From sequence record OY720021: a stretch of 64,000 bases of DNA. The stretch is one strand, 5' to 3'. Position numbers and translations under genes: made by a program. The DNA is from Escherichia phage vB_Eco_Solly. Shown one piece after another: positions 3,780 to 63,726 of this stretch (position 1 is its first letter; every line of letters starts with the position of its first letter). The notes beneath the pieces were generated by a model. The model was given only the letters and a program-made list of their open reading frames with translations. It searched no databases and was not told where the DNA came from.

Positions 3780-3868
3780 GTTATCGAGTTGGTGCCATTA
3801 TATACATCATTTTCTGATTGTGTTTTGTGTGCTTTCAAAATGAAGAAAGGGGCCGAAGCCCCTTATGA

Positions 3869-5287
3869 TTATGGATAGGTATAGATGATACCAGTTTCTA
3901 AAGCAGTTTTGTGAATGATGTATCCATTACGCGATTCTTGGACATCAACTTCTGGATAGTCTTTCATCATCTTCTGAAGAGTGTAACGATGCAGGTAGTA
4001 TTTACTATCTGGATCTTCAGTTTTCCAATCTTTACCTTCTTCAGTCATTTTTTGGATTTCATCCATAACCCACCAACCGCACCAGATGTAAGCTGAGCTA
4101 CGGTGTGGAAGAGGATGAACATAAGGTAATTCACCTTCTGGTTCTGGAGCAACTTTATCAGTTACCTGAACTTGACCTTCTGCCGTAATAGTTTTGCTAT
4201 CATAATCAGCAGCAGTAACAGTTGCAGTAACTTCAATAGTTTGACTTCCAATAGATGAGGTATCAACTGTATATACATTAGTTGACCCTTCTACAGGAGA
4301 AGAATCTTTCTTCCATGAATACTCAATTTGCGCTTCTTCTGGAGCATCAGTGACATTAGCAGTAAATGTAGCCGAAGCATCTTGCTGAACGTTAATAGAA
4401 GGAGGAGACAATGTAACCTGTGGATTCATTGTCTTCTTATTAACCGTTAATGATACTTCATTCGAAGTAACTTCCTTTTCATTGTAATTTTCAGCAGTTA
4501 CTTGGGCTACGCATTTAATTCTTTTTACTCCACTTGTAGTTGGAGTATAGTTAAATGTAGAGTTAGTTTCTCCACCAACTTGTGAATCATCTACATACCA
4601 CTGATACGTAGCAGATGCTCCATCAGGTTGAGAAGCTAAGGCAGCAGTAAATTGAACTGGGGTTCCGATTACTCCTGCTGGAGGACTATCAGGAGTTACT
4701 GCCAAGGTAGTTGTCTGCTCCTTTTTATTAACAGTCAGTGATACTTCATTAGAAGTAACGCTTAGTGCATCATAATCTGTCGCAGTTACTTGAGCCACAC
4801 ACTTAATTCTTTTTACCCCGCTTTCGGCAGGAGTGTAATTGAACGTAGCGTTAGTTGCTTCGCCCACAGGAGAATCATCTACATACCATTGATAAGTAGC
4901 GTTTGCGCCCGATGGCTGCGAAGCTAAAGCGGCAGTAAATTCAATAGCTGTTCCGATTACTCCAGCGTCAGGGCTATTAGGAGTTACAGCTAAGGTGGTC
5001 GTTTGTGTCTTATTTTGAACTGTGATAGTTGTAGTAGCTTCTGCTGTTTCAGCATCAGTATCTGGGACTGGGTTTGTTGCAACTACTTTAATAGTCTTTT
5101 GACCGGCAGGTCCTTTTAATACATAATTAAAAGTTGCTTCAGCTCCATCTTGTGGAACATCATCTACAGTCCAAGCATATGTAATAGGTCCATCTCCAGT
5201 TTGACCACTGGGTGTAGCAGTAAACTGCTGAGTCTGATCTATAACTCCAGTAGGTGTTTTAGGAGTTATATCAACTGTAAAAGCCAT
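3869..5287 (-). CDS. hoc: Highly immunogenic outer capsid protein Hoc with four Ig-like domains
   Basis: 472 aa; Ig-like repeats rich in T/V/S with YxW and KCVAQVTA motifs; two near-identical 96-aa tandem units; aromatic C-terminal capsid-binding region. Confidence 0.85.
   Translation of the reverse strand: MAFTVDITPKTPTGVIDQTQQFTATPSGQTGDGPITYAWTVDDVPQDGAEATFNYVLKGPAGQKTIKVVATNPVPDTDAETAEATTTITVQNKTQTTTLAVTPNSPDAGVIGTAIEFTAALASQPSGANATYQWYVDDSPVGEATNATFNYTPAESGVKRIKCVAQVTATDYDALSVTSNEVSLTVNKKEQTTTLAVTPDSPPAGVIGTPVQFTAALASQPDGASATYQWYVDDSQVGGETNSTFNYTPTTSGVKRIKCVAQVTAENYNEKEVTSNEVSLTVNKKTMNPQVTLSPPSINVQQDASATFTANVTDAPEEAQIEYSWKKDSSPVEGSTNVYTVDTSSIGSQTIEVTATVTAADYDSKTITAEGQVQVTDKVAPEPEGELPYVHPLPHRSSAYIWCGWWVMDEIQKMTEEGKDWKTEDPDSKYYLHRYTLQKMMKDYPEVDVQESRNGYIIHKTALETGIIYTYP
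4433..5008 (-). repeat. Tandem direct duplication of a 288-bp Ig-domain unit inside hoc
   Basis: Units about 4433..4720 and 4721..5008 align with mostly synonymous or conservative differences. Confidence 0.8.
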
Positions 5288-16067: not shown

Positions 16068-16097
16068 ATGGGGACCTTTCGGTCCCCATATTTTTAT
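16068..16097 (+). terminator. Intrinsic terminator after gene 54
   Basis: ATGGGGACC-TTTC-GGTCCCCAT followed by ATTTTTATTT. Confidence 0.7.
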
Positions 16098-16384
16098 TTA
16101 CGGAATGAAATAAAAGCAGCAACTGAAGCAACTAAACTGTCTTCAATATAAACCTCAATTTTTACCGGAGCTTCTGACTCAAATTTACCTGTTACTACAC
16201 CTTGGAAAATACTTTCAGTCTGTTCTGGCTTTGAAAAATTTTCAGAAGGAAAAATTCCGAACTTTTTATCTGTTCCAAAAATTTTGATAAATTCATCGTA
16301 AACTGCTTCATTAAAAGCATTATCAGCAGGAATAACGCCTTCAACTACAAGTTCTTGACCCAAAAAGCGCAAAGAAGATTTCAT
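16094..16384 (-). CDS. Hypothetical protein downstream of alt
   Basis: 96 aa; early promoter and SD GAGGAAC upstream. Confidence 0.5.
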   Translation of the reverse strand: MKSSLRFLGQELVVEGVIPADNAFNEAVYDEFIKIFGTDKKFGIFPSENFSKPEQTESIFQGVVTGKFESEAPVKIEVYIEDSLVASVAAFISFRK

Positions 16385-16415
16385 TTTGTGTTCCTCATGT
16401 TATGTCAGTAAGACT

Positions 16416-16445
16416 ACTATAACACAACATGAGGGACTTGTAAAC
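16416..16445 (-). promoter_or_regulatory. Early promoter (GTTTAC -35, 18-nt spacer, TATAGT -10)
   Basis: Minus strand GTTTAC ... TATAGT; same cassette repeated at 31760..31789. Confidence 0.6.
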
Positions 16446-18502
16446 TACATTTTGAACTTTTTAGACATTCCGTTGATGTTAACCAAAGAAGCTAAGATTT
16501 GAGAAACTTCGTTTTCCTCTTCTTTTGATTCTTCTACAAGGAATTGATTAAATCCAGTCATTGGACGAACTTCACCAGTTTCCATCAAATGATCGCCATC
16601 ATATACTGATTCCTCTAATTGTTCAGAAGGAGGAACGATTGTACCTTCGATTAGATACTTGTTATAAGCAGTTTCTTTCATAAAGTAAGTACTTACTTTA
16701 TTAATCTTCAGTAAAATTCCACGTGGTAGAATAACTTCAGCTTCTGATGGAAATCCTGATAAATGACCTGGAACGATAACTTTGATTCGCTCAGCTCCTT
16801 TAATTACCATACCCACGCTAGTTTCAGCATCTTCATTAGCATATGTAGAATGACTACCCATATGCATCAAATCTTCTGCATCAATGGAACCTTCTCCTTC
16901 ACCAGAAAATACTGCGCCAGAATCATCTAGAGCCATATAGTTTTTACCATGCTCACCGAAGATATTTGGTTTAAGCGATGTGGATACGAAGTTCTTGAAA
17001 TAGAACATTTTATTTTCAATGTTATGACGCAAAGTTTTAAAGGTAACTTCTTGCCCACGATAAAGAGTAGTTCCTGGAGGAAGAACTGAACCTTTAGCAA
17101 ATGCAGAATCCAACGTCTCGATGTGTTTAATAGCTCGTTCCATATATTCTTCACGGGTAGAATCAGGTTTACCTAAAAGGAACGAGTTCATTTCAACATA
17201 TGAATCTGCACAATAATCTTCAATTACATCAGACTCAGCCTGAGTTAATCCTTTTGGAGTTACTTCAGTGCTTGCGTATTCATATGCCTGAGCGGCAGAT
17301 TCATTAATCAATTTATAAATGCCATTCATGACAAATTGAATAATAGCTGTCTTTTCATCTGGTGTAGCTTTAGAACCTTTAACTAAATCATTGATAATTT
17401 TCTTAATAACATCAAAGCTATTAGAAATATTAATGTCAGCAAGATCGCTTAAAATTTTATCAGTTTTATAATCAAAGAATTCTTTATTCTTTAAATATTC
17501 TTGAGAACCTTGATATGTTATATCGCTCTGCAACTTGATAGATGGATCACGTAAACGTGCATGGGCTAATGCAATATGATTTCGGAAACTTTCTAGTTCA
17601 TAATCGTTAGATTTAAAACGAGAAGCACTTCTCATACCACCGATAGCTCCTTTGCTAAAGTTTGAACCAATCTGAATAACGCCAGAGTTCATCGGACCTT
17701 CTGCTTTATATACCGGAACTTTAGATTCAAACTCTTGATATTTCTTAGCAGCGAAGCTATCACCCTGAAGTGAAGCATCAACAGTAGAATATTGAGCTTG
17801 TGCTGCTAATCGACGACTAATTTTAGTTTTCTGAATAACAGCTTGATCCGTGCGCTTATCATTTTCTAAAGCAATAGAAGCAGCAACAGCGACAGCTTTA
17901 GGAACAGCATTACCTGTTTTAACGTCTACATAAACATCACCAACCTTTGATTCAACTTTTGTGAATAACTCAGTTGAAATAGGAGGTACACCTGGAATGT
18001 CTTCTAAATTGGCATTTTTACGGTAAACCATAATATATGCATATTTCTTATCATAGTCCCAGATTTCCTTTAAAAGAACATATCGACCTGCTCCTTTAGT
18101 ACGTACTAAACGGTCAGCAATAACTTGCATTTGACGAGCTGCGCCATTTGTTTTACTTTTTAGTACGCGGAATAGGCATGCGTCGATTTTATACTGTTTC
18201 ATTGTTTGAAGAGCAGTATCAAAAACAGCATTAATGACGCCAATTGGATTTCCACCCAAGTTTCTAAGCTTGACTAACGATAATTTCTCATTAACACCTA
18301 TCATTACGATATGCATCATTTTGTCGCCTGGCTTAACGTTTTTATTCGTATCACCGCCAGAGGTGTATGTACAAAATCTAAATCCAGGAAGCACGCTTTC
18401 TTCACCGGCTTGAATAGCAAAAATTTGTGGTATTTTATGCTTAGGATTTAAGTTAACAACCGGCGCCGAAGCGCCGTCAAATAATTCTGTAATAAGTTCC
18501 AT
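16445..18502 (-). CDS. alt: Alt-like mono-ADP-ribosyltransferase, paralog A (packaged head protein)
   Basis: 685 aa; N-terminus MELITELFD; C-terminal ART elements YRGQ, FVSTSL, SEAEVILPRG. Confidence 0.85.
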   Translation of the reverse strand: MELITELFDGASAPVVNLNPKHKIPQIFAIQAGEESVLPGFRFCTYTSGGDTNKNVKPGDKMMHIVMIGVNEKLSLVKLRNLGGNPIGVINAVFDTALQTMKQYKIDACLFRVLKSKTNGAARQMQVIADRLVRTKGAGRYVLLKEIWDYDKKYAYIMVYRKNANLEDIPGVPPISTELFTKVESKVGDVYVDVKTGNAVPKAVAVAASIALENDKRTDQAVIQKTKISRRLAAQAQYSTVDASLQGDSFAAKKYQEFESKVPVYKAEGPMNSGVIQIGSNFSKGAIGGMRSASRFKSNDYELESFRNHIALAHARLRDPSIKLQSDITYQGSQEYLKNKEFFDYKTDKILSDLADINISNSFDVIKKIINDLVKGSKATPDEKTAIIQFVMNGIYKLINESAAQAYEYASTEVTPKGLTQAESDVIEDYCADSYVEMNSFLLGKPDSTREEYMERAIKHIETLDSAFAKGSVLPPGTTLYRGQEVTFKTLRHNIENKMFYFKNFVSTSLKPNIFGEHGKNYMALDDSGAVFSGEGEGSIDAEDLMHMGSHSTYANEDAETSVGMVIKGAERIKVIVPGHLSGFPSEAEVILPRGILLKINKVSTYFMKETAYNKYLIEGTIVPPSEQLEESVYDGDHLMETGEVRPMTGFNQFLVEESKEEENEVSQILASLVNINGMSKKFKM

Positions 18503-18505
18503 GAT

Positions 18506-20599
18506 TTATCCTTGAACGAACTTGTAAGGCATGTTTGTAATATCTATGCAAGACGCAATAATTCCAAGAGATGATTCTACTTTCTGTTTAACGTTTGATG
18601 AAACAAATGATGCAAAGTCAACTCTGTCTTCTATTTCAATATCACCTGTCATTGCAACCAATTCACCAGTTTCCATTAAATGGTCTCCGTCATAGATTAC
18701 CGATTCAGTGAGCTCTTCCGTGGTCATAACTTCAGCTTGAATGAGTTTTGTATTATTAGATGTTGTTCCGTCATTATTAGAAGCATCAGTTATTTTATTA
18801 ACTTTGACCATCAATCCACGTGGTAGAATAACTTCAGCTTCTGTTGCTATTCCGAGACTTCCTGGATATACAACATTAACTTTATGAGCTCCATCAATTG
18901 CCCATCCTATTTGAACTTTAACGTATTCAGGATTTTCTTTATACGCTCTTATTTCGTTTGGATTAATAGTTATTCCTTCTTCATTTTTATCAACTGTTAA
19001 TTCGTTGCGAGCTTCTGGTTCTAAAAGACCAATACCAGCGTGTGTAATTCCAAAACGTCCAAAAATGATAGGAGTTAAAGAAGTAGATACAAAATTTCTA
19101 AAATAGAACACTTTATTTTTAACTAACGCTTCATATATAGGAGCAGTCATACTTTGAGCACGATAAACTGTAATGCCTTCTGGTATACGGTCACCATTTT
19201 CAAAAGCTGAATCTAAGTTATTTATAGCAGATTCAATTTCTTTTTCACTCATTACATCATATCGTTCTGGATTGTAACGACCTAAAAGAAGATTATTGAT
19301 GTCAGTATATCCTGAACCGCAATATTCTCTAATGCCACGCTTTTGTGATGGAGTATATTTAGAACCATCGCGGGCAATAGTAATATCAATCATTGGACCA
19401 GCACCAATTCCAGAAAAACTGTAAATCATTCGTTTGAGGAATTTAGTTTTTGCTGCGTTCCAGGAATTTTTAGTTATTTCTTCCCAGACTTCATCTGGTT
19501 GTCCTTTACGATTTTTATTATGATTAGCAAGCCATTTATCTTTATAATCTTCAAAGAATTGATTTACAGCTGCTGCGTATTTCTCTAAACATTTTATTGA
19601 AGTAGTTGGTTCATTTTTAATTGCATTAAAAATTACTTCTTTAATTTTTTCTGAAACTTCACCGACTTGACTCATTGGAAAGAATTTATAATCATAGTGA
19701 AGTTCATCTGCCGTTCCTTCAGCAATAATTTTTGCTGCCTTTGTTTTAGAAGCTAATGAATTAATTCCAATTTTCATTTCTTCTGCTTCGGGAATTAAAG
19801 GTGCAGTAGCTGGTTTATTAAAATTAGCTGCTGTAGATTCATACTTCTGGAATAATTCACTTTCAAATCTAGAAGATTCCAATGACTGACTTTGTGCAAT
19901 TGCTCTACGGGAAATTTTAACTTTAACGATTACGGCTTGGTCAGAACGTTTATCATTTTCTTGTGCAATTGATGCTGCAATTGCCTCATTTTTAGTTACT
20001 TGGGCTCCAGTATCTTTATTGATATAAACATCACCGACTTTCGATTCAACTTTAGTAAAGAGCTCGGTACTAATTTCCGGAACTCCTGGAATGTCTTCTA
20101 GTGATACATTTTTGCGATGTATAAGAATATATGCATACTTTTTATCGTAATCCCAGAGTTCCTTAAGAAGGACGTATCTACCACCTGAACGACTACGGAT
20201 AAGTCTATCAGCAATAACTTGAATTTGTCGAGCTTGACCGGCGGTTTTAGACTTAAGAATACGAAGCATACAAGCATCAATTTTATATTGACGCATTGTT
20301 TGCATTGCAACAGTAAAAACTGAATTGATATAATTAATTGGGCTTGGACCAAGACCTTTTAATTTAGCAATTGAACCTTTAGCAGTTAATGTAAAAGGAA
20401 CAATATGCATCATTTTATCGCCCATCTTTAAATCGCGATTAGTATCACCTCCAGATGTATAGGTACATAAACGAAAGCCTGGTTGTTCAATTGCATCATC
20501 AACATGAACTGAAAAAATTTGTGGTATTTTCTTCTTTGGATTTAAGTTTGTAATCGGAAGAGTAGTATCTTCGTCAAATAATTCTGTAATGAGTTCCAT
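18506..20599 (-). CDS. Alt-like mono-ADP-ribosyltransferase, paralog B
   Basis: About 697 aa from second ATG; N-terminal 200 aa near-identical to paralog A; C-terminal VYRAQ, FVSTSL, TEAEVILPRG; late promoter 20623..20630. Confidence 0.85.
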   Translation of the reverse strand: MELITELFDEDTTLPITNLNPKKKIPQIFSVHVDDAIEQPGFRLCTYTSGGDTNRDLKMGDKMMHIVPFTLTAKGSIAKLKGLGPSPINYINSVFTVAMQTMRQYKIDACMLRILKSKTAGQARQIQVIADRLIRSRSGGRYVLLKELWDYDKKYAYILIHRKNVSLEDIPGVPEISTELFTKVESKVGDVYINKDTGAQVTKNEAIAASIAQENDKRSDQAVIVKVKISRRAIAQSQSLESSRFESELFQKYESTAANFNKPATAPLIPEAEEMKIGINSLASKTKAAKIIAEGTADELHYDYKFFPMSQVGEVSEKIKEVIFNAIKNEPTTSIKCLEKYAAAVNQFFEDYKDKWLANHNKNRKGQPDEVWEEITKNSWNAAKTKFLKRMIYSFSGIGAGPMIDITIARDGSKYTPSQKRGIREYCGSGYTDINNLLLGRYNPERYDVMSEKEIESAINNLDSAFENGDRIPEGITVYRAQSMTAPIYEALVKNKVFYFRNFVSTSLTPIIFGRFGITHAGIGLLEPEARNELTVDKNEEGITINPNEIRAYKENPEYVKVQIGWAIDGAHKVNVVYPGSLGIATEAEVILPRGLMVKVNKITDASNNDGTTSNNTKLIQAEVMTTEELTESVIYDGDHLMETGELVAMTGDIEIEDRVDFASFVSSNVKQKVESSLGIIASCIDITNMPYKFVQG

Positions 20600-20622
20600 C
20601 ATATCCTCTCTAGTGTTTATTC

Positions 20623-20630
20623 TATTTATA
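20623..20630 (-). promoter_or_regulatory. Late promoter TATAAATA for the alt paralog operon
   Basis: Plus-strand TATTTATA 24 nt upstream of alt paralog B ATG. Confidence 0.6.
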
Positions 20631-20651
20631 AAATTAAAGGCCCGAAGGCCT

Positions 20652-20840
20652 TTAATAATCTATTGGTAAGAGAGTACGATATATTTCAAACTTTGGACCT
20701 TTTTCATAGGCATCAAATGTTTCTGTGAATTTATTATAAGCATATGCATCTATAAATTCAATCATGATTTGTGATACAGAAGTAGAAACATCTCCACCTT
20801 CTTTTTGAGCCACGACAATTGTTTCTAAGTAAGCTTTCAT
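20652..20840 (-). CDS. Hypothetical small protein between ligase and alt
   Basis: 62 aa ORF; start overlaps gene 30 stop. Confidence 0.45.
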   Translation of the reverse strand: MKAYLETIVVAQKEGGDVSTSVSQIMIEFIDAYAYNKFTETFDAYEKGPKFEIYRTLLPIDY

Positions 20841-23402: not shown

Positions 23403-23863
23403 AGAGAGTCTCTTAATAGGTTTAACACATCAATAAATTCAGCTTCGGTTAGTATTGTATCATCTTTTGTTAGACCACTAGCCATGCTGTGCTTCAAAAC
23501 TTTTCCTTTCGAGGCTTGTAATGCATCACGAAAGCCCCTGTTTTGGATCGCTGCTTCAAAATATGCATTTGTGTATAATTCTTTCCATGCTTCGGAATAT
23601 CTTGAAAACGGAACTCCAAGCCAGAAGAGGGTCCCACGGTCCTGAGCTCTAGCATAAGACCTTCCAGCTTGTTGGGCGGCAAGCCCGGATAACCCAAATA
23701 TACGACGTTGTTGTTCAACATTTTTCACCTTACATCCTTGGAGGAATCCTTCGAGACCTCCGAATTGAATACCATCCATGACGAAAGGCCATTGGGCGAA
23801 ATTACTTAATGCGCATGATGGCCATCTAAAATTGCTTCTTATCTCTAACTCAGACATTTTCAA
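23399..23863 (-). CDS. NADAR / YbiA-like protein (30.3-like position)
   Basis: 154 aa; LSNFAQWPFVMDG resembles the YbiA FSNFAAWPIKVDG core as recalled. Confidence 0.7.
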   Translation of the reverse strand: MKMSELEIRSNFRWPSCALSNFAQWPFVMDGIQFGGLEGFLQGCKVKNVEQQRRIFGLSGLAAQQAGRSYARAQDRGTLFWLGVPFSRYSEAWKELYTNAYFEAAIQNRGFRDALQASKGKVLKHSMASGLTKDDTILTEAEFIDVLNLLRDSL

Positions 23864-24056
23864 TACTTATAATTTCAACATCAGCCCAATGACCATAGCA
23901 AGGAAGACGAAATTCAACTGGCCAGTTAGGATCCTTTTCTAATATAATAGACTGAACTTGTGGCTCTTCATGTTCATCGGTATACGGACCTTTATACGTT
24001 ACTTTATATGTAACCTTAATGTACTGAATTCCAAAAATCTTATTAATTATATTCAT
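23850..24056 (-). CDS. Hypothetical small protein
   Basis: 68 aa ORF in tightly overlapped early block. Confidence 0.45.
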   Translation of the reverse strand: MNIINKIFGIQYIKVTYKVTYKGPYTDEHEEPQVQSIILEKDPNWPVEFRLPCYGHWADVEIISIENV

Positions 24057-24537: not shown

Positions 24538-24578
24538 AGTATTTTCCTCAGTAAGGGGCCGAAGCCCCTTATTTTATT

Positions 24579-24944
24579 TTAAATATCAAATTCGTTAAGA
24601 ACTACATCAAAGATTGCTTCAAGATGCTCAGGTTTAGCTCTGTTACTCAGAATATGACGAATCCAAGTTTTAACCAGAAGCTTACGATTAACGCCATTCC
24701 AGCAAGGATGAGTCCCTAAATCACGTTGACGGAAATCATCATCCAAAGCGATTTTAAAAGAAGAACCTTCTTTCGTGATTGAAACCGTAATGCCATTTTC
24801 AAATCGCATATAAACGTAGTTAGGAGTCATATACTGTTCAATTTCGCATACTGATCCATTTTGATGTTTCCAAAGGCAAATAGTATCAATAGAACCTGCA
24901 ATACCGTTAGAAACATATTTACGTTCAAAGTTGATGTAGTTCAT
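24579..24944 (-). CDS. Hypothetical protein
   Basis: 121 aa ORF; early promoter-like element at 24950..25010. Confidence 0.5.
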   Translation of the reverse strand: MNYINFERKYVSNGIAGSIDTICLWKHQNGSVCEIEQYMTPNYVYMRFENGITVSITKEGSSFKIALDDDFRQRDLGTHPCWNGVNRKLLVKTWIRHILSNRAKPEHLEAIFDVVLNEFDI

Positions 24945-27018: not shown

Positions 27019-27255
27019 TTATTTACCTATTACAGTTTTAATATGGGTTGTTCCACGTTCTTTAAGAGTGGAAAGCAATTTTTGGCATTTTTCTAAATCA
27101 GATTTCCAACTATATGGTCTATCAATACAAACCCATTCTGACTTATAATACTGCTTCCATTTAGAGAAAAAATATTTCTTATACTCTACAGCAAATGAAA
27201 TGTTCTCATTAGAATAAGAACTAATTGCTGTGAGTTGTACCAAACGAAATTTCAT
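27019..27255 (-). CDS. Hypothetical protein (31.2-like position)
   Basis: 78 aa ORF. Confidence 0.5.
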   Translation of the reverse strand: MKFRLVQLTAISSYSNENISFAVEYKKYFFSKWKQYYKSEWVCIDRPYSWKSDLEKCQKLLSTLKERGTTHIKTVIGK

Positions 27256-30884: not shown

Positions 30885-31234
30885 TTAGAAAGGTCCTGGA
30901 TGTCTTCTGCGAACTTGTTGAAGGAGTTATTGATTTGTTTTTCAACCAATCCTGGCTTATGAGCCACCACATCCGCCTTCTTTGCGTCTTTGCGCAGTTT
31001 TTCATTTTCACGCTCAATAGCAGCAATTGCCTCACGATTTTTAGTATTCATCGCATCAATATAATTATACTGAATTCGCAAATTATTTAATGCTAAGGCG
31101 TTTTCATTGGCTGTTTTTGTAATTTCAGTAACTGATGTTTCTAATCTTTCTACCTTATTTTTTAAAATAATAGATGTTCCGCCAAATGCTATTACAAGTA
31201 ATAGCAATCCAGCTGTTGTATTACTTAATTGCAT
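30881..31234 (-). CDS. Inner-membrane i-spanin (Rz-like)
   Basis: 117 aa; N-terminal transmembrane helix then charged coiled-coil; directly upstream of lipoprotein ORF. Confidence 0.7.
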   Translation of the reverse strand: MQLSNTTAGLLLLVIAFGGTSIILKNKVERLETSVTEITKTANENALALNNLRIQYNYIDAMNTKNREAIAAIERENEKLRKDAKKADVVAHKPGLVEKQINNSFNKFAEDIQDLSK

Positions 31235-31731
31235 AAAGTTTTAATAACCTCTATAATATCGTCTTGAGAAAGACCGTTAATTAAAATATGATGTTCAGCT
31301 GGAGATTTAGAAATTTTAAAGCATGCCTCAACATCTTCTGCCATATCCGATGCACTACGATTTGGATTACTAATTCCAAGACGATGTTTTCCCGTTAAAG
31401 GATTAACGATGATATAGCATTTGCAGCTATTGATATGAACATTAGGTTGAGTCTGATTAATGAACACTTCACAATCATACTTAGCGAGTTGATTTTCTAA
31501 AAAGACTTTCATCTCTTCAACCGCATCAGGAAGCATATCACGGGCTTGCTCAAGACGACGATTTCGATATTCTTTAATGGTCGTTTTCCGCTTGACTTGC
31601 TTAGCTAAATCTTTCTTAAGATCGGTGATATATCCAACTCGACGATTTCCTTTGAATACAGAAATCCCATCTGTAGTATCACCGTATGCTTCAACGACCA
31701 TTTCAGTAGTAATAAGCTGCAAATCCATCAT
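31225..31731 (-). CDS. alc: Alc-like protein (inhibitor of transcription on cytosine-containing DNA)
   Basis: 168 aa at the T4 alc position; early promoter 31760..31789 directly upstream. Confidence 0.7.
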   Translation of the reverse strand: MMDLQLITTEMVVEAYGDTTDGISVFKGNRRVGYITDLKKDLAKQVKRKTTIKEYRNRRLEQARDMLPDAVEEMKVFLENQLAKYDCEVFINQTQPNVHINSCKCYIIVNPLTGKHRLGISNPNRSASDMAEDVEACFKISKSPAEHHILINGLSQDDIIEVIKTLCN

Positions 31732-31759
31732 AAAGTCCTCATGTTATGTCAGTAAGACT

Positions 31760-31789
31760 ACTATAACACAACACGAGGGACTTGTAAAC
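31760..31789 (-). promoter_or_regulatory. Early promoter upstream of alc
   Basis: Near-identical copy of the 16416..16445 promoter and leader. Confidence 0.6.
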
Positions 31790-38705: not shown

Positions 38706-39532
<827 letters not shown>

Positions 39533-40249: not shown

Positions 40250-40501
40250 TTACTGTTCAATAAATCCTGTGTAAAATTCTACATCTTCAGCATCCATACC
40301 GTCGCAGTATTCATTAACCATAAACTGTTTAAGACGATCTAAAGGACCTTCAATAACAACTGAAACATTACAATTAGGATCATCTAATGCGCTTATGATA
40401 CTAAGTTCAGGATAACGATTACGAATAATTTCTTCAATATATTCAAAATCAACAACATCAATATCAATTTTAGCCATATTATTTTCCTCTTTAATTATCA
40501 A
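40250..40501 (-). CDS. Hypothetical acidic protein
   Basis: 83 aa; preceded by repeated early-promoter cassette 40517..40607. Confidence 0.5.
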
Positions 40502-40520
40502 CAGTATTGCCGATAATTGT

Positions 40521-40582
40521 ATAGTACCACAGTATGCTTTGGTTGTAAACCGTTTTGTGAAAAAATTTTTGAAATAAAAAAG
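40521..40582 (-). promoter_or_regulatory. Early promoter with A/T-rich UP element
   Basis: Minus strand GTTTAC, 18-nt spacer, TACTAT; A/T tract upstream; identical copy at 57846..57908. Confidence 0.6.
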
Positions 40583-40622
40583 GGGACCCTAGAGGTCCCC
40601 AATTAATTAGTAATATAATCTG

Positions 40623-41531
40623 TTAAAGGTCATTCAAAAGGTCATCCAGGTCCGTGTCATCAGCACTAGATGAACTGCCAGAGCTTGAGCTCATAAAATC
40701 ATCTTCAGTTTTTGTTTTGAAGTCATCAACATTGAATGCATCCAAATCATCAGCAACTTTATCAGCTTTCTTAGCGGCAGTTGCTGCGGCACCACCCATA
40801 GCAGCAGTTCCCATAACTTGACTGAACTTAGTGCTCAGTTCTTCAAATGATTTGAATTTATCTTTAGAAGTCATTTCAGAAAGGTCAACCATTTGTTCGA
40901 ACAGTTCTTTCTGGAAAGATTCATCGTCAATGTTTGGAATCGCAGATTGATTCAGGAATTTAGATTCGTCGTAGTTACTAAATCCAGAAACTTGTTTAAC
41001 TTTTAGTACAAAGTTAGCACCTTCCCACGGACAAGTTACATCAACCGGAGTTTCACCCATTTCAACATCAACCGCAATCATTGCATTGATTTTATCCCAG
41101 ATTTTCTTACCGAAACGGTATTTAAATACTTTACCTTCATTTTCTGGAGCAGCTGGGTCTTTTACTACAAGAATGTTAGCCCAGTAAGAAGTTTTACGTT
41201 TAACAAGACTGTACTCTTTATTGTCAGTGTTGTACAGATCATTTTTACTAATGTATTGACATACTGGGCAAGAATCGTAATCACCGTGGGTAGATGAACA
41301 ATTTTCGATATACCATTTACCATTTTTCTTGAAACCGTGATTTACAAGAATTGCGAATGGTGCTTGTTCATCATTTTTAGACGGAAGAAAACGAATTACT
41401 GCTTGACCGTTACCCGCATTGTCGAGTTTCAGTTTCCACTCGCCTTTATCTTCAGAAGAAAAACCACCTTTATTTCCAGCCAGTTTAGCCATTTGCGCAG
41501 CGAGTTCAGCAGTAGATTTACGTTTAAACAT
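40623..41531 (-). CDS. 32: Single-stranded DNA-binding protein gp32
   Basis: 302 aa; acidic Ser/Asp-rich C-terminus; conserved leader upstream. Confidence 0.9.
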
Positions 41532-41630
41532 TTTTATTTCCTTTTTAATTTAATTAACAGTTGGTGCTATGACGATGTATGACCTCATAGCTGGTCAGTG
41601 AGATAATTATAATCTATTTATAATAAGCAA
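41532..41630 (-). promoter_or_regulatory. Gene 32 leader: A/U-rich translational operator with upstream structured element
   Basis: Minus strand ends UUAAAUUAAAAAGGAAAUAAAAAUG, preceded by self-complementary segment and TATAAATA. Confidence 0.6.
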
Positions 41631-42284
41631 TTAATACTTGCAAGATTTCACAGTTTCAATGAAAACATTTTTAGCTTTCTGCGAATCAATATTTAAAATT
41701 TTTCTATAAGCCTTTAACTTTATAGAATAATTATTCCAGACTAAATTATCAGTCTGTTCATCATGTTTATCAATTATATTTAAAAATGAATCAAGCAAGA
41801 TAAACGTCTCAAACGAAATTATATTCGATTGAAGTAGTTTAAAAATATAGCTTGATTGAACCTTTGGATTATACTCAAAGATTTCTTTAAAAGCAGAAAC
41901 TTCAACTTTTTTACTAAAATAATAAATGTTGCGAATATCTTCTTCAAACTTAAATTTAATTTGTTTTAAGCGTCCGATATATTCACGATAAAACACAAGT
42001 GCATCAGCGTCAGAGATGTCACCAATCCAAGCATCTTGGTTAGCAACCAAATTACTTATAAAGATTAAAGCAAGTTCCTTTAATTTATATTTTTCTGATA
42101 ACTTCTGGAAAAAATACTTATCCCTTCGCTTTTGATAAGCGGCATCAGACACCCGCATGCACCAATTATACTTAATTACATCATACTTTCCATTCATGTG
42201 TTGTTTTATCATTAAGTATAATTTATAAACTGATTTACCATCAATGTATCTTTCACCACCAGCAGGCATGCGGAGTTTAATCAT
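41631..42284 (-). CDS. 59: Helicase loader gp59
   Basis: 217 aa basic protein between 33 and 32. Confidence 0.8.
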   Translation of the reverse strand: MIKLRMPAGGERYIDGKSVYKLYLMIKQHMNGKYDVIKYNWCMRVSDAAYQKRRDKYFFQKLSEKYKLKELALIFISNLVANQDAWIGDISDADALVFYREYIGRLKQIKFKFEEDIRNIYYFSKKVEVSAFKEIFEYNPKVQSSYIFKLLQSNIISFETFILLDSFLNIIDKHDEQTDNLVWNNYSIKLKAYRKILNIDSQKAKNVFIETVKSCKY

Positions 42285-55349: not shown

Positions 55350-55361
55350 TAACTATACCAC

Positions 55362-57168: not shown

Positions 57169-57804
57169 TCACAGTTCAGATGCTACAGTGATTACAGCTT
57201 CAATGTTTTCTGCCGAGCGTTTAATGTCAAGATACACATTACCGTTTTTAGCGATTTTACATGACATTCCGATGTCAGTAAATTTCTGAATATGATGTTC
57301 CATCATTTTGTATCCAAAAATTCGCATATTTCCGTTGTTGTTAATTTCAAAATTACGAATTCCGTGAGTGCGTTTTTCTAAAATAGCGAGATAGTTACTG
57401 CGATAAGTTTCAACCTTTTTAAGAACAAATCCATTTTCATCTAAAAGTTTTAACATGAGGTCTTTATCTTCTTCCATATCTGAAGTAATCTCGCGAGCTT
57501 TACGAGTTGCTCGTTTTTTCAGTAGTTCCGGAGCATTTTCCTGTGCATATAAAGTTGCTGCATTTGAAATAATATCCTGAGCTTCACCTGTAATGATTAA
57601 TCCATCACCAGATTTCTCCACTAGGCCTTTTTTAATCAATACCCCAATATTACTATTAACTACTGCGTTACCTAAATCTGGATGTACCTCACGAACTTCT
57701 GCAGCTGTAATGAAATCTTTCTTAGCAATAGTAATTAAAATCGCAGCAGTTTTTTCATTCAGAACATCGTTAGAAGCTTTGATGATGTAAGTTACTTTAG
57801 ACAT
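57169..57804 (-). CDS. motA: Middle-transcription activator MotA
   Basis: 211 aa; preceded by early promoter cassette 57846..57908. Confidence 0.85.
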   Translation of the reverse strand: MSKVTYIIKASNDVLNEKTAAILITIAKKDFITAAEVREVHPDLGNAVVNSNIGVLIKKGLVEKSGDGLIITGEAQDIISNAATLYAQENAPELLKKRATRKAREITSDMEEDKDLMLKLLDENGFVLKKVETYRSNYLAILEKRTHGIRNFEINNNGNMRIFGYKMMEHHIQKFTDIGMSCKIAKNGNVYLDIKRSAENIEAVITVASEL

Positions 57805-57845
57805 TTTCTAATCTCCGTAATTCTGTATCAGTAGTTGATAGTTGT

Positions 57846-57908
57846 ATAGTACCACAGTATGCTTTGGTTGTAAACCGTTTTGTGAAAAAATTTTTGAAAT
57901 AAAAAAAA
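57846..57908 (-). promoter_or_regulatory. Early promoter with A/T-rich UP element upstream of motA
   Basis: About 66 bp identical to 40517..40582. Confidence 0.6.
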
Positions 57909-57933
57909 GGGAGAGCCTCGGCTCTCCCTAAAA

Positions 57934-58083
57934 TTACTGCATGACTGTGATAACTGTCATGATAACACGTTGAATTCCGAACGCAAGAAGACCTCCTGCT
58001 ACGGCAGGAACAACACCTAACCCCGCCAGTAAAATGCCACCGGATACTAATGCGGCGCTTGTAATACCAATGAATGGACTCAT
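57934..58083 (-). CDS. Small hydrophobic membrane protein (49 aa), below ORF-track threshold
   Basis: Manual translation MSPFIGITSAALVSGGILLAGLGVVPAVAGG...; ATG overlaps gene 52 stop. Confidence 0.35.
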   Translation of the reverse strand: MSPFIGITSAALVSGGILLAGLGVVPAVAGGLLAFGIQRVIMTVITVMQ

Positions 58084-61632: not shown

Positions 61633-61660
61633 TTTCCGCTCCTCCGTAGTTGATAGTTGT

Positions 61661-61690
61661 ATAGTACCACGGTCCTTGTGGTATGTAAAC
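61661..61690 (-). promoter_or_regulatory. Early promoter
   Basis: Minus strand GTTTAC, 18-nt spacer, TACTAT, then GGAGGAG SD. Confidence 0.55.
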
Positions 61691-61706
61691 TAGTTTATGA
61701 AAATTT

Positions 61707-62264
61707 TTAGATGGAAAGATACCAGCCGTTGTAGTTGCTTTTTCTTACAACCTTACGAAGGTCTTCTCTATCACCAATGAACTTCGGAGTGTACTGGATG
61801 ACACCTGGATGAATTTCTTTAGTGTTGAATATAATTATACAGTCCGCGACCTGGTGATTTAGAATGGGCCCTAGATTTATTCCAGAACCATATGGATACT
61901 CTCCGCTGCATCCCGTTGTTACCGAAATCCAACGCGAGTCAGTTTGATGTGTCTTAACTTCTACACGGAGCCCACAGTATTTTGGATGCGCCAAAACATC
62001 CCATGCATACGTGTACGGATCATCGACATCTTCTTGACCTTTGTTAACATATCCACTCAACCAATCTGCTACCACATACTCGGCATACACAGCAATACGG
62101 CATCTTTCGATAACTTCTGCCTTATCCTGATTTGGGTTTTGTTTTAAAGAGTATCTTGCAGTATCAGCAATTTTGACCTTCATTTCACTAGTCAAGTCAC
62201 TGTTCGATAGGGTAAATGTCGGAATCTGAAATAGTCTCTGTAGCCCCGGATTCGTTTTCTGCAT
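61707..62264 (-). CDS. denB: Endonuclease IV
   Basis: 185 aa, the T4 DenB length; position next to rIIB. Confidence 0.7.
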   Translation of the reverse strand: MQKTNPGLQRLFQIPTFTLSNSDLTSEMKVKIADTARYSLKQNPNQDKAEVIERCRIAVYAEYVVADWLSGYVNKGQEDVDDPYTYAWDVLAHPKYCGLRVEVKTHQTDSRWISVTTGCSGEYPYGSGINLGPILNHQVADCIIIFNTKEIHPGVIQYTPKFIGDREDLRKVVRKSNYNGWYLSI

Positions 62265-62526: not shown

Positions 62527-62564
62527 AATTTTTCCTTAAAACAAAAGGGCCGAAGCCCTTTATT

Positions 62565-62759
62565 TTACTTGAATTGTGCAATTCTTTTCTCTAGACATTC
62601 AGCATAAGATTTCATTGAGATGAACTGTGAAAGCAGCAGTTCTTGCTCAACTGCACTAACCGTTAGAAACTTTGTGCTTTCTAAAAATTTGCTCAGTGCA
62701 TTAATTTTGAGCATTAATTGATCGTATTCTTCTTTTACTCGTGCTTGATAACCTAACAT
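62565..62759 (-). CDS. Hypothetical small protein
   Basis: 64 aa ORF flanked by GC hairpins. Confidence 0.45.
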   Translation of the reverse strand: MLGYQARVKEEYDQLMLKINALSKFLESTKFLTVSAVEQELLLSQFISMKSYAECLEKRIAQFK

Positions 62760-62787
62760 AATTTTCCTTAGTTAAGGGCCGAAGCCC

Positions 62788-63726
62788 TTATTTAAATTGC
62801 TCAGTAACGTCTTCAACTACTTCGTATTGGCAAGTACGCATTTTAGCATCGTTGTAATCAATCGGAATTGATACTACATCACGCGGATGTACTTTAACTT
62901 TTACAACTCGGCTAGTTGAACTACCAAAGTGACGAATATAAGATTTAGAACACACATGCAGACCACGAGAACAAGTTTGTGTATCATCGTCGTTCACACG
63001 AGTACGTGGCATTTTAACTACTTTACCAGGACTGTTATCAAAGGTATTTGAGTGACAATCAAAGTAATTGCTACGAACTACTTTCCAAGCATAGAAGTAA
63101 CCATCTTCTGTAATTTCAATATCGTTTGCTACCAAGAAATCAAAGAGTCGAGATACCGCTTTTTGGCTTGGGTTTTCCAGCAGATTTTCCAAGAACGGAA
63201 AATAAAATTCAAAGTTTTCACCTTTTTCCATCGAATCGAGAATACGATCAACTAAACCAGACCGTAATTCGATATTTTGATAGAACAAGCTTCCGCCTTC
63301 AATTCGAACATCGCCGGAAATATATTTTTCAACAGCGCGACGAACATTAATTTTTTGTGCAGCTTCTTCCAGCTTATCCGCTACAAGCAGATTAAGAATT
63401 TCCTGGAAGTTTGAATGAGTATTAGGTGTTGCGTTATAAGTTACACCGTCGACAGTAATTGAAATGAATTTTTTAGATGCATTCCAAATAATGTCAGATT
63501 TAGCAACTGGAGCAATAACTGCATCGCTATTAACTTTAACTGTAATATCACCGCTAATAGTAACTTTAGAGCGTTTAGCTTCTTCAGCATTTTTCAAAAC
63601 ACGACGGATTGTGTCAACCGATACATCCTTCCAATAAGCCAATTCCTGTTGGGTGTAATTACCGCTTGAATACAGTTTAACAATTTCAGCTTGTTCGTTT
63701 TTGGTCAGGCATTTAATATTGTACAT
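62788..63726 (-). CDS. rIIB: rIIB protein
   Basis: 312 aa, the T4 rIIB length; adjacent to rIIA. Confidence 0.85.
   Translation of the reverse strand: MYNIKCLTKNEQAEIVKLYSSGNYTQQELAYWKDVSVDTIRRVLKNAEEAKRSKVTISGDITVKVNSDAVIAPVAKSDIIWNASKKFISITVDGVTYNATPNTHSNFQEILNLLVADKLEEAAQKINVRRAVEKYISGDVRIEGGSLFYQNIELRSGLVDRILDSMEKGENFEFYFPFLENLLENPSQKAVSRLFDFLVANDIEITEDGYFYAWKVVRSNYFDCHSNTFDNSPGKVVKMPRTRVNDDDTQTCSRGLHVCSKSYIRHFGSSTSRVVKVKVHPRDVVSIPIDYNDAKMRTCQYEVVEDVTEQFK

Follow-up and report, generated by a model that had tools for sequence, protein, structure and literature searches.

Escherichia phage vB_Eco_Solly is a Tequatrovirus (a T4-like phage), and the stretch of its genome analysed here, 64,000 nt of record OY720021 (the window), carries the same early promoter in front of two different genes that lie 17.3 kb apart. 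How did two dispersed promoters come to be identical, and were genes moved along with them? The first-pass annotation of this DNA had likened the pair to the promoter-early-stem-loop (PeSL) cassettes of T4-type genomes. We examined the two sites in the window, in T4 and in other relatives; a 2-kb piece around the copy at frd.3 is 97.8% identical to phage UFV-AREG1 and is covered over at least 80% of its length by 491 phage records.

An exact 65-nt repeat with an early promoter

Comparison of the window with itself showed that positions 40517-40581 (copy A) and 57842-57906 (copy B), at an offset of 17325, are identical over all 65 nt, and that the repeat widens to 70 nt with a single mismatch (40512-40581 against 57837-57906, A at 40516 and G at 57841). 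When up to three mismatches were allowed, the two copies were the sole sites in the window, and 0.00 sites were expected from 100 dinucleotide-preserving shuffles. The near-identity that had been noted between 40517..40582 and 57842..57908 is therefore real and exact over 65 nt. Both copies lie on the minus strand. The repeat begins within the T-run 3' of a hairpin at each site and stops about 5-10 nt beyond the −10 element; next to the hairpin, a run of A (T on the minus strand) has 6 nt in copy A and 8 in copy B.

Read on the minus strand, each copy has TTTACA and TACTAT separated by 17 nt, with TG preceding the −10 element, as detected by the promoter scan, and an A/T-rich region lies upstream, as the first-pass annotation had proposed for a pair of minus-strand early promoters. 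T4 early promoters are very strong UP/−35/TGn/−10 promoters that are used by the host polymerase immediately after infection, and their consensus is unusually long, reaching beyond the −35 and −10 elements (PMC2988021). Both copies have the features of this class, namely an UP region, a −35 element GTTTAC, a TGn-extended −10 element, and a position ahead of an early gene, on the strand that is transcribed early.

Other repeats were also seen in the window. A second pair of early promoters is nearly identical (16392-16445 and 31736-31789, minus strand, 54 nt, 98%). In each member GTTTACA is followed by a spacer, by TATAGT and by a hairpin in the 5'UTR that contains the Shine-Dalgarno sequence; the first precedes an alt.-3-like ORF (16094-16384), the second precedes alc (31225-31731), and the same pair is found in T4 at 123093 and 136336. 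Four sites (3847-3890, 24553-24596, 62544-62587 and 62761-62798) have almost the same terminator hairpin, AAGGGGCCGAAGCCCCTT with a T-rich tail, a tandem direct repeat of 288 nt with 74% identity lies at 4433-5008, and several repeat families about 2.09 kb apart (16554-18505 against 18645-20602) indicate two adjacent paralogous alt-like genes.

Terminator-promoter modules at frd.3 and motA

According to the T4 comparison and the ORF lists, copy A is situated between gene 32 and frd.3. Gene 32, encoding the ssDNA-binding protein, is a 302-aa ORF at 40623..41531 (minus strand) that is annotated as gene 32 in the best relatives. The terminator scan placed an intrinsic terminator of this gene at 40572..40600 (minus strand), composed of the hairpin GGGGACCTCTAGGGTCCCC (40600-40582) and a T-run (40581-40572); the hairpin has a folding energy of −15.2 kcal/mol (z −2.99) and is annotated as a terminator in phage G29. 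This terminator is specific to the locus, and only its T-run is included in the repeat. Copy A, the early promoter of frd.3 (40517..40581, minus strand; repeat and promoter scan), comprises the T-run and UP region (40581-40551), the −35 element GTTTACA (40550-40544), a 17-nt spacer with TGG at its end (40543-40527) and the −10 element TACTAT (40526-40521). The −10 element of its T4 orthologue ends at T4 position 146846. Judged from these elements, transcription would start at about 40514-40516. The first gene behind copy A is frd.3 at 40250..40477 (minus strand), identified from the ORF list, the alignment with T4 frd.3 and a match to phrog_1764 (E 8e-29). Its start codon, ATG at 40477, is preceded by the Shine-Dalgarno sequence AAAGAGGAAAA as in T4, with GAGG at 40489-40486.

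The neighbourhood of copy A is variable at some distance from the promoter. No segG was found between gene 59 (41631-42284) and gene 32, the interval 41532-41630 of the window being without a homing-endonuclease gene; segG is also absent from T2 and T4_ev240 and is present in T4, UFV-AREG1 and HY01. About 1 kb downstream of copy A, the frd.1-frd stretch (window 39287-39532; 20070-20659 in locus L007 and 23410-24008 in locus L009) varies in its number of small ORFs, with one of 81 aa in the window, none in T4 and two each in T4_ev240 and HY01. A further early promoter resembling the subfamily described below lies near this stretch, at 39840-39811.

Copy B is flanked by motA.1 and motA, again from the T4 comparison and the ORF lists. 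The upstream gene, motA.1 (57934..58083, minus strand; phrog_3487, E 7e-31), encodes a small membrane protein of 49 aa and closes the gene 52 unit. An intrinsic terminator found by the terminator scan 3' of motA.1 (57898..57929, minus strand) is formed by the hairpin AGGGAGAGCCGAGGCTCTCCCT (57929-57908; −19.1 kcal/mol, z −4.57) and a T-run (57907-57898). Copy B, the early promoter of motA (57842..57906, minus strand; repeat and promoter scan), has its −35 element GTTTACA at 57875-57869 and its −10 element TACTAT at 57851-57846, and the same GTTTACA and TACTAT are annotated as the −35 and −10 signals of T4 motA in GenBank Z48569. The start of transcription is predicted at about 57839-57841. Behind it lies motA (57169..57804, minus strand; ORF list and T4 comparison), whose 211-aa product is the activator of middle transcription.

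The two hairpins have stems of 8 bp (module A) and 9 bp (module B) with six G-C pairs each and tails of T6 and T8, and the terminators lie 20 nt (gene 32) and 4 nt (motA.1) past the stop codon. Because of their gene neighbourhood, we take each to be an intrinsic terminator, one serving gene 32 and the other the gene 52/motA.1 unit. Orthology to T4 and agreement with the consensus suggest that both the early promoters and the terminators are active in Solly. A strong GC stem-loop upstream of each copy had been reported, and a hairpin with a T-run is indeed present at both; the further statement that the promoter-plus-hairpin units are identical was not borne out, since the hairpins are unrelated in sequence and both lie outside the repeat. 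The downstream genes, listed as an 83-aa ORF and motA, are unrelated as stated, but the ORF is frd.3 and has 75 aa from its ATG at 40477. Rfam scans of both module regions gave sub-threshold noise and no known RNA family.

Each terminator hairpin exists among phages in two forms that are exact reverse complements of one another (GGGGACCTCTAGGGTCCCC or GGGGACCCTAGAGGTCCCC for gene 32; a sequence containing GCCGAGGC or GCCTCGGC for motA.1), which looks like an inversion of the loop, as expected of template switching in a palindrome. Either orientation was found with each of the promoter spacer alleles described below (window 40582-40600 and 57908-57929; loci L001, L007-L010 and L014-L021). We considered the combinations of hairpin orientation and spacer type, in a four-gamete argument, as evidence of repeated ectopic events, and rejected it; ordinary allelic recombination would produce such combinations too when infections are mixed.

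Shared flanks and individual spacers in a T4 promoter subfamily

The motA promoters of the window and T4 differ at 1 of 65 nt, and the frd.3 promoter of the window is orthologous to that of T4 both by its position and by its sequence. In T4, essentially the sole difference between the frd.3 and motA promoters is the spacer, which reads AGCATAAAGCTTTA at frd.3 and ACCAAAGCATACTG at motA. A scan of 150 kb of the 169-kb T4 genome (1-100,000 and 119,000-168,903) with a regular expression placed these promoters in a subfamily whose frame is AAAATTTTTTCACAAAAC-GTTTACA, 14 nt, TGG-TACTAT-ACAACTATC. Its core members have −10 elements ending at 27051, 55355, 70667, 146846 (frd.3), 163644 (motA) and 167057, and the promoters at 41677, 53914 and 166778 fit the frame more loosely, with flank identity down to 62%. 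Between loci the flanks of the subfamily are 66-96% identical. The mean identity is 77% for the flanks and 39% for the spacers, most spacer pairs being 29-36% identical, and the spacer can therefore be used as a barcode of each promoter.

By this barcode, the T4 frd.3 promoter is itself a twin of another promoter. It was found in both top pairs among 561 promoter pairs (median identity 41%), namely with the promoter at 55355 (91%, over 78 nt) and with the motA promoter (82%), and it has the same spacer as the promoter of nrdC.10, whose −10 element ends at 55355. Solly and T4 differ in this respect; the frd.3 promoter has the nrdC.10 spacer in T4, whereas in Solly, RB14 and others it is of the motA type. 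A third member of the subfamily in the window lies downstream of denB (61657..61721, minus strand, −35 to −10 at 61690-61661; 64% in the repeat family), and its spacer, ATACCACAAGGACCG, is the allele present at the frd.3 slot of phage HY01.

Mixed relationships were also noticed in other early promoters. The T4 promoters at 27051 and 166778 have spacers that agree at 13 of 14 nt and flanks that are just 68% identical, and such mosaicism (T4 27051, 53914 and 166778; window 61184-61155) suggests that exchange in patches is general in this family.

Spacers of other loci at the 32-frd.3 slot of relatives

At its home locus the motA promoter is nearly invariant. A Hamming scan found 0-3 mismatches per 65 nt in T4, T2, HY01, UFV-AREG1, T4_ev240 and three IMG/VR contigs, and a 54-mer specific to the motA type was present in 478 phage records, 404 of them with at least 99% identity. 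The slot between gene 32 and frd.3, by comparison, held at least five spacer alleles in 17 genomes, and four of these alleles match an early promoter at another locus. The motA barcode was found in the window, RB14, T4_ev240, ECO78, teqskov and PinkRuby, with a one-base variant in UFV-AREG1 and Pu-Krd-SF4; the nrdC.10 barcode in T4 and KIT03; a barcode one mismatch away from the e.8 copy of T4 in T2, RB51, G29, ACG-C40 and HP3.2; and the barcode of the denB-downstream promoter in HY01. A fifth type, accompanied by loss of the gene 32 hairpin, was found in ZN18.

We used allele-specific 54-mers and megablast to count the records that have an allele in two places. The motA 54-mer was in two places in 36 of 478 records, the nrdC.10 54-mer in 64 of 452, the e.8 54-mer in 38 of 309 and the denB-downstream 54-mer in 7 of 348. 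Diverged twins such as those of UFV-AREG1 and Pu-Krd-SF4 are missed by this procedure, so that the count for the motA type is at least 36. Counting alleles from megablast coverage of an 85-nt or 161-nt query was unreliable; the query aligns through a T4-type spacer, GATGATT variants of the UTR break the 28-nt seed, and T2- and HY01-type junctions were overlooked, so the two-place counts were used instead. The motA-type allele is a minority allele at the frd.3 slot, and the e.8-type allele is apparently commoner there than at the e.8 locus itself. An exact scan of IMG/VR for a conserved 23-mer gave four contigs, among them contig L005, which is too few for a survey.

The genes around the promoters did not vary in the same way. 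In Solly both sites show the canonical T4 gene order, with no gene gained or lost. The orders 32-frd.3-frd.2-frd.1 and 52-motA.1-motA and the length of the 32-frd.3 intergenic region are the same in the window, T4, T2, HY01, UFV-AREG1 and T4_ev240. Gene 32 was followed by frd.3 in 17 of 17 sampled junctions, with the canonical T4 order in 16 of the 17, the exception being ZN18 without the gene 32 hairpin. Beyond the promoter patch, the 5'UTR of frd.3 stays specific to frd.3.

The ZN18 junction deserves a separate description. In this Yersinia phage (L018, 40-240) the last codons of gene 32 and the terminator hairpin are absent, and the coding sequence directly adjoins the fifth-type promoter, whose upstream flank (ATTCC, continuing to AAAAATTTTTTCA) resembles those of the T4 e.8 and imm.1 promoters. 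The junction suggests a longer exchange tract or a deletion.

Comparison with PeSL cassettes

The published layout of a PeSL opens with a stem-loop and an A/T-rich tract, continues with an early promoter and closes with the Shine-Dalgarno sequence and the start codon of the gene behind it (Arbiol et al. 2010, PMC2839356; Comeau et al. 2014, PMC4122927); the T4/PST promoter consensus is TTTACW-N17-TAYWAT (PMC4122927). Recombination between PeSLs was proposed to excise or insert small ORFs, and crossovers were sequenced between the −10 element and the ATG (PMC2839356, PMC4122927). Mini-circles were found by inverse PCR in RB49 and phi1 (PMC2839356), and the mode of exchange was left as "homologous or site-specific recombination" (PMC4122927).

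Every sequence feature of this class was found in both Solly modules, and the suggested resemblance to T4-type shuffling cassettes was upheld in this respect. The hairpins (40600-40582 and 57929-57908), each followed by a T-run, lie about 30 nt 5' of the −35 element; TTTACA-17-TACTAT is present in both copies with TTTTTTATTTCAAAAATTTTTTCACAAAAC before it; and the Shine-Dalgarno sequence and start codon follow 35-45 nt past the −10 element, as AAAGAGGAAAATAATATG at frd.3 and ACGGAGATTAGAAAATG at motA. With regard to gain or loss of ORFs, relatives have an additional ORF and a second promoter at copy B, and at copy A there was no ORF insertion or deletion, but at least five promoter alleles. Borders without gene gain or loss in relatives had been named by the first-pass annotation as evidence against the resemblance; such constancy was what we observed at copy A, and it does not hold at copy B, where 138 records have the extra ORF.

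The insertion at motA was seen in IMG/VR contig L005, in which the motA.1 terminator and promoter are identical to those of the window; behind them come an additional ORF of 75 aa, another early promoter and then motA. At least 80% of the 401-nt insertion region (L005:1300-1700) is covered by 138 phage records. The inserted ORF and second promoter sit directly 3' of the −10/start region of the motA-type promoter, and the left junction in Tequatrovirus is CTATCAA, just past the −10 element, in the same zone as the crossovers sequenced in PeSL mini-circles (PMC2839356). In Dhakavirus JS10 the same 75-aa ORF, with 97% nucleotide identity, lies between two near-identical hairpin-plus-promoter modules. 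We conclude that the insertion of the 75-aa ORF in the 138 relatives is PeSL-type shuffling.

The Solly modules resemble PeSL cassettes in their layout, in the T4/PST consensus and in the repeated copies that give homology for recombination, and in relatives an ORF cassette was gained or lost at the motA module. In contrast to PeSL cassettes, the modules adjoin conserved known genes (32 and motA) rather than orphan ORFs, their stem-loops are unrelated in sequence, and no ORF has moved in Solly. Where PeSL recombination excises or inserts, the event in Solly is the replacement of a promoter by its paralogue, giving a chimeric or converted PeSL.

The inserted 75-aa ORF of the relatives, with its own promoter and hairpin, is also a self-contained transcription unit between two genes, like the "morons" of lambdoid phages. 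Novel ORFs of T4-like phages were found to be unlike morons because they do not stand out from the remaining genome in G+C content (Nolan et al. 2006, PMC1524935), and the insertion at motA differs from morons in that it uses promoter homology and not illegitimate recombination.

Probable overwriting of the frd.3 promoter by that of motA

On these grounds, each copy is very likely the promoter half of a PeSL-type terminator-plus-early-promoter module, and the motA promoter was probably copied non-reciprocally into the frd.3 slot. In each module, a locus-specific rho-independent terminator would end the upstream unit (gene 32 at A, gene 52 with motA.1 at B), and its T-run would pass directly into the A/T-rich UP region of a strong early promoter of the sigma-70 UP/−35/TGn/−10 type. 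Host RNA polymerase would fire these promoters immediately upon infection, as expected from orthology to the annotated T4 promoters, to transcribe frd.3 and the genes behind it in one case and motA in the other. Members of the subfamily may be viewed as an individual spacer of about 14 nt set in near-identical flanks, extending from about 40 nt upstream through GTTTACA and, downstream, over TGGTACTATACAACTATC. The motA promoter, including its spacer, would have overwritten the frd.3 promoter and left two identical copies of 65 nt; the common flanks probably primed this exchange, by ectopic homologous recombination or by gene conversion. Relatives also gain and lose small ORF cassettes by crossing over within these shared promoter sequences, as shown at the motA site.

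Non-reciprocal copying from motA to frd.3 is indicated because the spacers at the frd.3 slot match paralogous loci and the motA promoter is nearly invariant. The direction is suggested by allele frequencies rather than by a dated phylogeny, and judging from the e.8 allele, the frd.3 slot seems not to be always simply the recipient. We estimate at least four independent ectopic events; once made, an allele can be spread by allelic recombination between co-infecting phages. For Solly itself, the repeat records the replacement of a promoter, not the movement of a gene.

A recent insertion or transposition in Solly of a mobile PeSL cassette, that is, a promoter together with its gene (frd.3 or motA, for instance), by integration of a mini-circle would also yield two copies. 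Mini-circles of PeSLs do exist in RB49 and phi1 (PMC2839356), and there is an insertion at the motA promoter in 138 relatives; however, the gene order and the 32-frd.3 intergenic length are unchanged with respect to T4, T2, HY01, UFV-AREG1 and T4_ev240, frd.3 follows gene 32 in all 17 junctions, and it is the promoter patch alone that differs, with the frd.3-specific 5'UTR kept. We regard such an insertion as improbable. A chance match or an assembly artefact, the general possibility of which exists for any short repeat, has a practically negligible probability, given that 100 shuffles produced 0 matches, that a repeat of 65 nt is shorter than typical reads, that the motA-type promoter occupies the frd.3 slot in the independently sequenced RB14, T4_ev240, ECO78, teqskov and PinkRuby, and that the motA-type 54-mer is in two places in 36 records.

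Both genes might instead need the same optimal strong promoter, so that convergent or purifying selection made the sequences alike with no copying. The long consensus of T4 early promoters beyond the −35 and −10 elements (PMC2988021) and the 66-96% identity of the subfamily flanks across loci agree with selection on the flanks, but the spacer of about 14 nt is free to vary (29-36% identity in most subfamily pairs), at least five spacers occur at the single frd.3 slot of relatives with otherwise conserved flanks, and selection for strength does not predict that four alleles match spacers at other loci exactly or nearly. Agreement of a 14-nt barcode at unrelated loci, exact or with one mismatch, cannot come from convergence. 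Because five working alleles occupy one slot, selection of this kind is contradicted, and we give it very little credence. The same diversity bears on an additional dedicated role of the 65-nt unit, as a regulator site that co-regulates motA and frd.3, in replication priming, or as a site on which a site-specific recombinase acts. That the motA copy is exactly conserved in hundreds of phages could be read in favour of such a role, and site-specific recombination was left open for PeSLs (PMC4122927). Yet with at least five spacers serving the frd.3 slot no particular shared site is required there, no Rfam match was obtained, and the crossover points vary within the modules, as general homologous recombination predicts; a dedicated role is accordingly very improbable as well.

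The replacement proposed for Solly fits a pattern in which promoters have been overwritten repeatedly at this slot, and recurrent overwriting there is well supported. SegG cuts gene 32 in segG-less phages (PMC2988022), and one could envisage that the 32-frd.3 slot is a hot spot of overwriting by paralogous promoters, triggered by SegG breaks in gene 32 of segG-less phages such as Solly and their ectopic repair, leading to concerted promoter evolution with spacers as barcodes. Taken as a whole, this scheme is rather unlikely, and the link to SegG is purely inferential; in the six genomes for which both are known, segG status and frd.3 allele showed no pattern.

Discussion

Concerted evolution by ectopic gene conversion is known in bacterial rRNA operons and in tufA/tufB. 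The early promoters described here are similar in that paralogues within a genome are more alike than orthologues between genomes, and in that patches move non-reciprocally between dispersed copies with shared flanking homology. They differ in that the unit, about 65 nt in length, is a promoter and not a gene, that a tract need comprise no more than a spacer with its flanks, and that the machinery would be the phage's own recombination system.

The analysis adds little that is new on function, since each element has its orthologue in T4, among the early promoters of motA and frd.3 and the terminator of gene 32. The Solly modules belong to a published class of elements, and the same arrangement is present in RB14; at least 35 other database genomes have the motA-type 54-mer twice. 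In the literature searched, we found neither an earlier report of gene conversion between T4 early promoters nor a description of one promoter slot that carries the barcodes of several paralogous promoters across the genus, including the frd.3/nrdC.10 twin of T4. A slot with several barcodes is a modest extension of the PeSL model.

For annotation, assembly and the engineering of T4-like phages, the pair is a warning that exact repeats of 65 nt located 17 kb apart can recombine; a circle formed between copies A and B would carry 17.3 kb. With the variable spacer as a barcode, it also illustrates cleanly, from nature, the behaviour of repeated regulatory modules in T4-like phages, in which whole promoters are copied between distant loci and the same homology slots small genes in and out. 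The findings support PeSL modular shuffling in the T4 genus itself and point to a specific hot spot downstream of gene 32.
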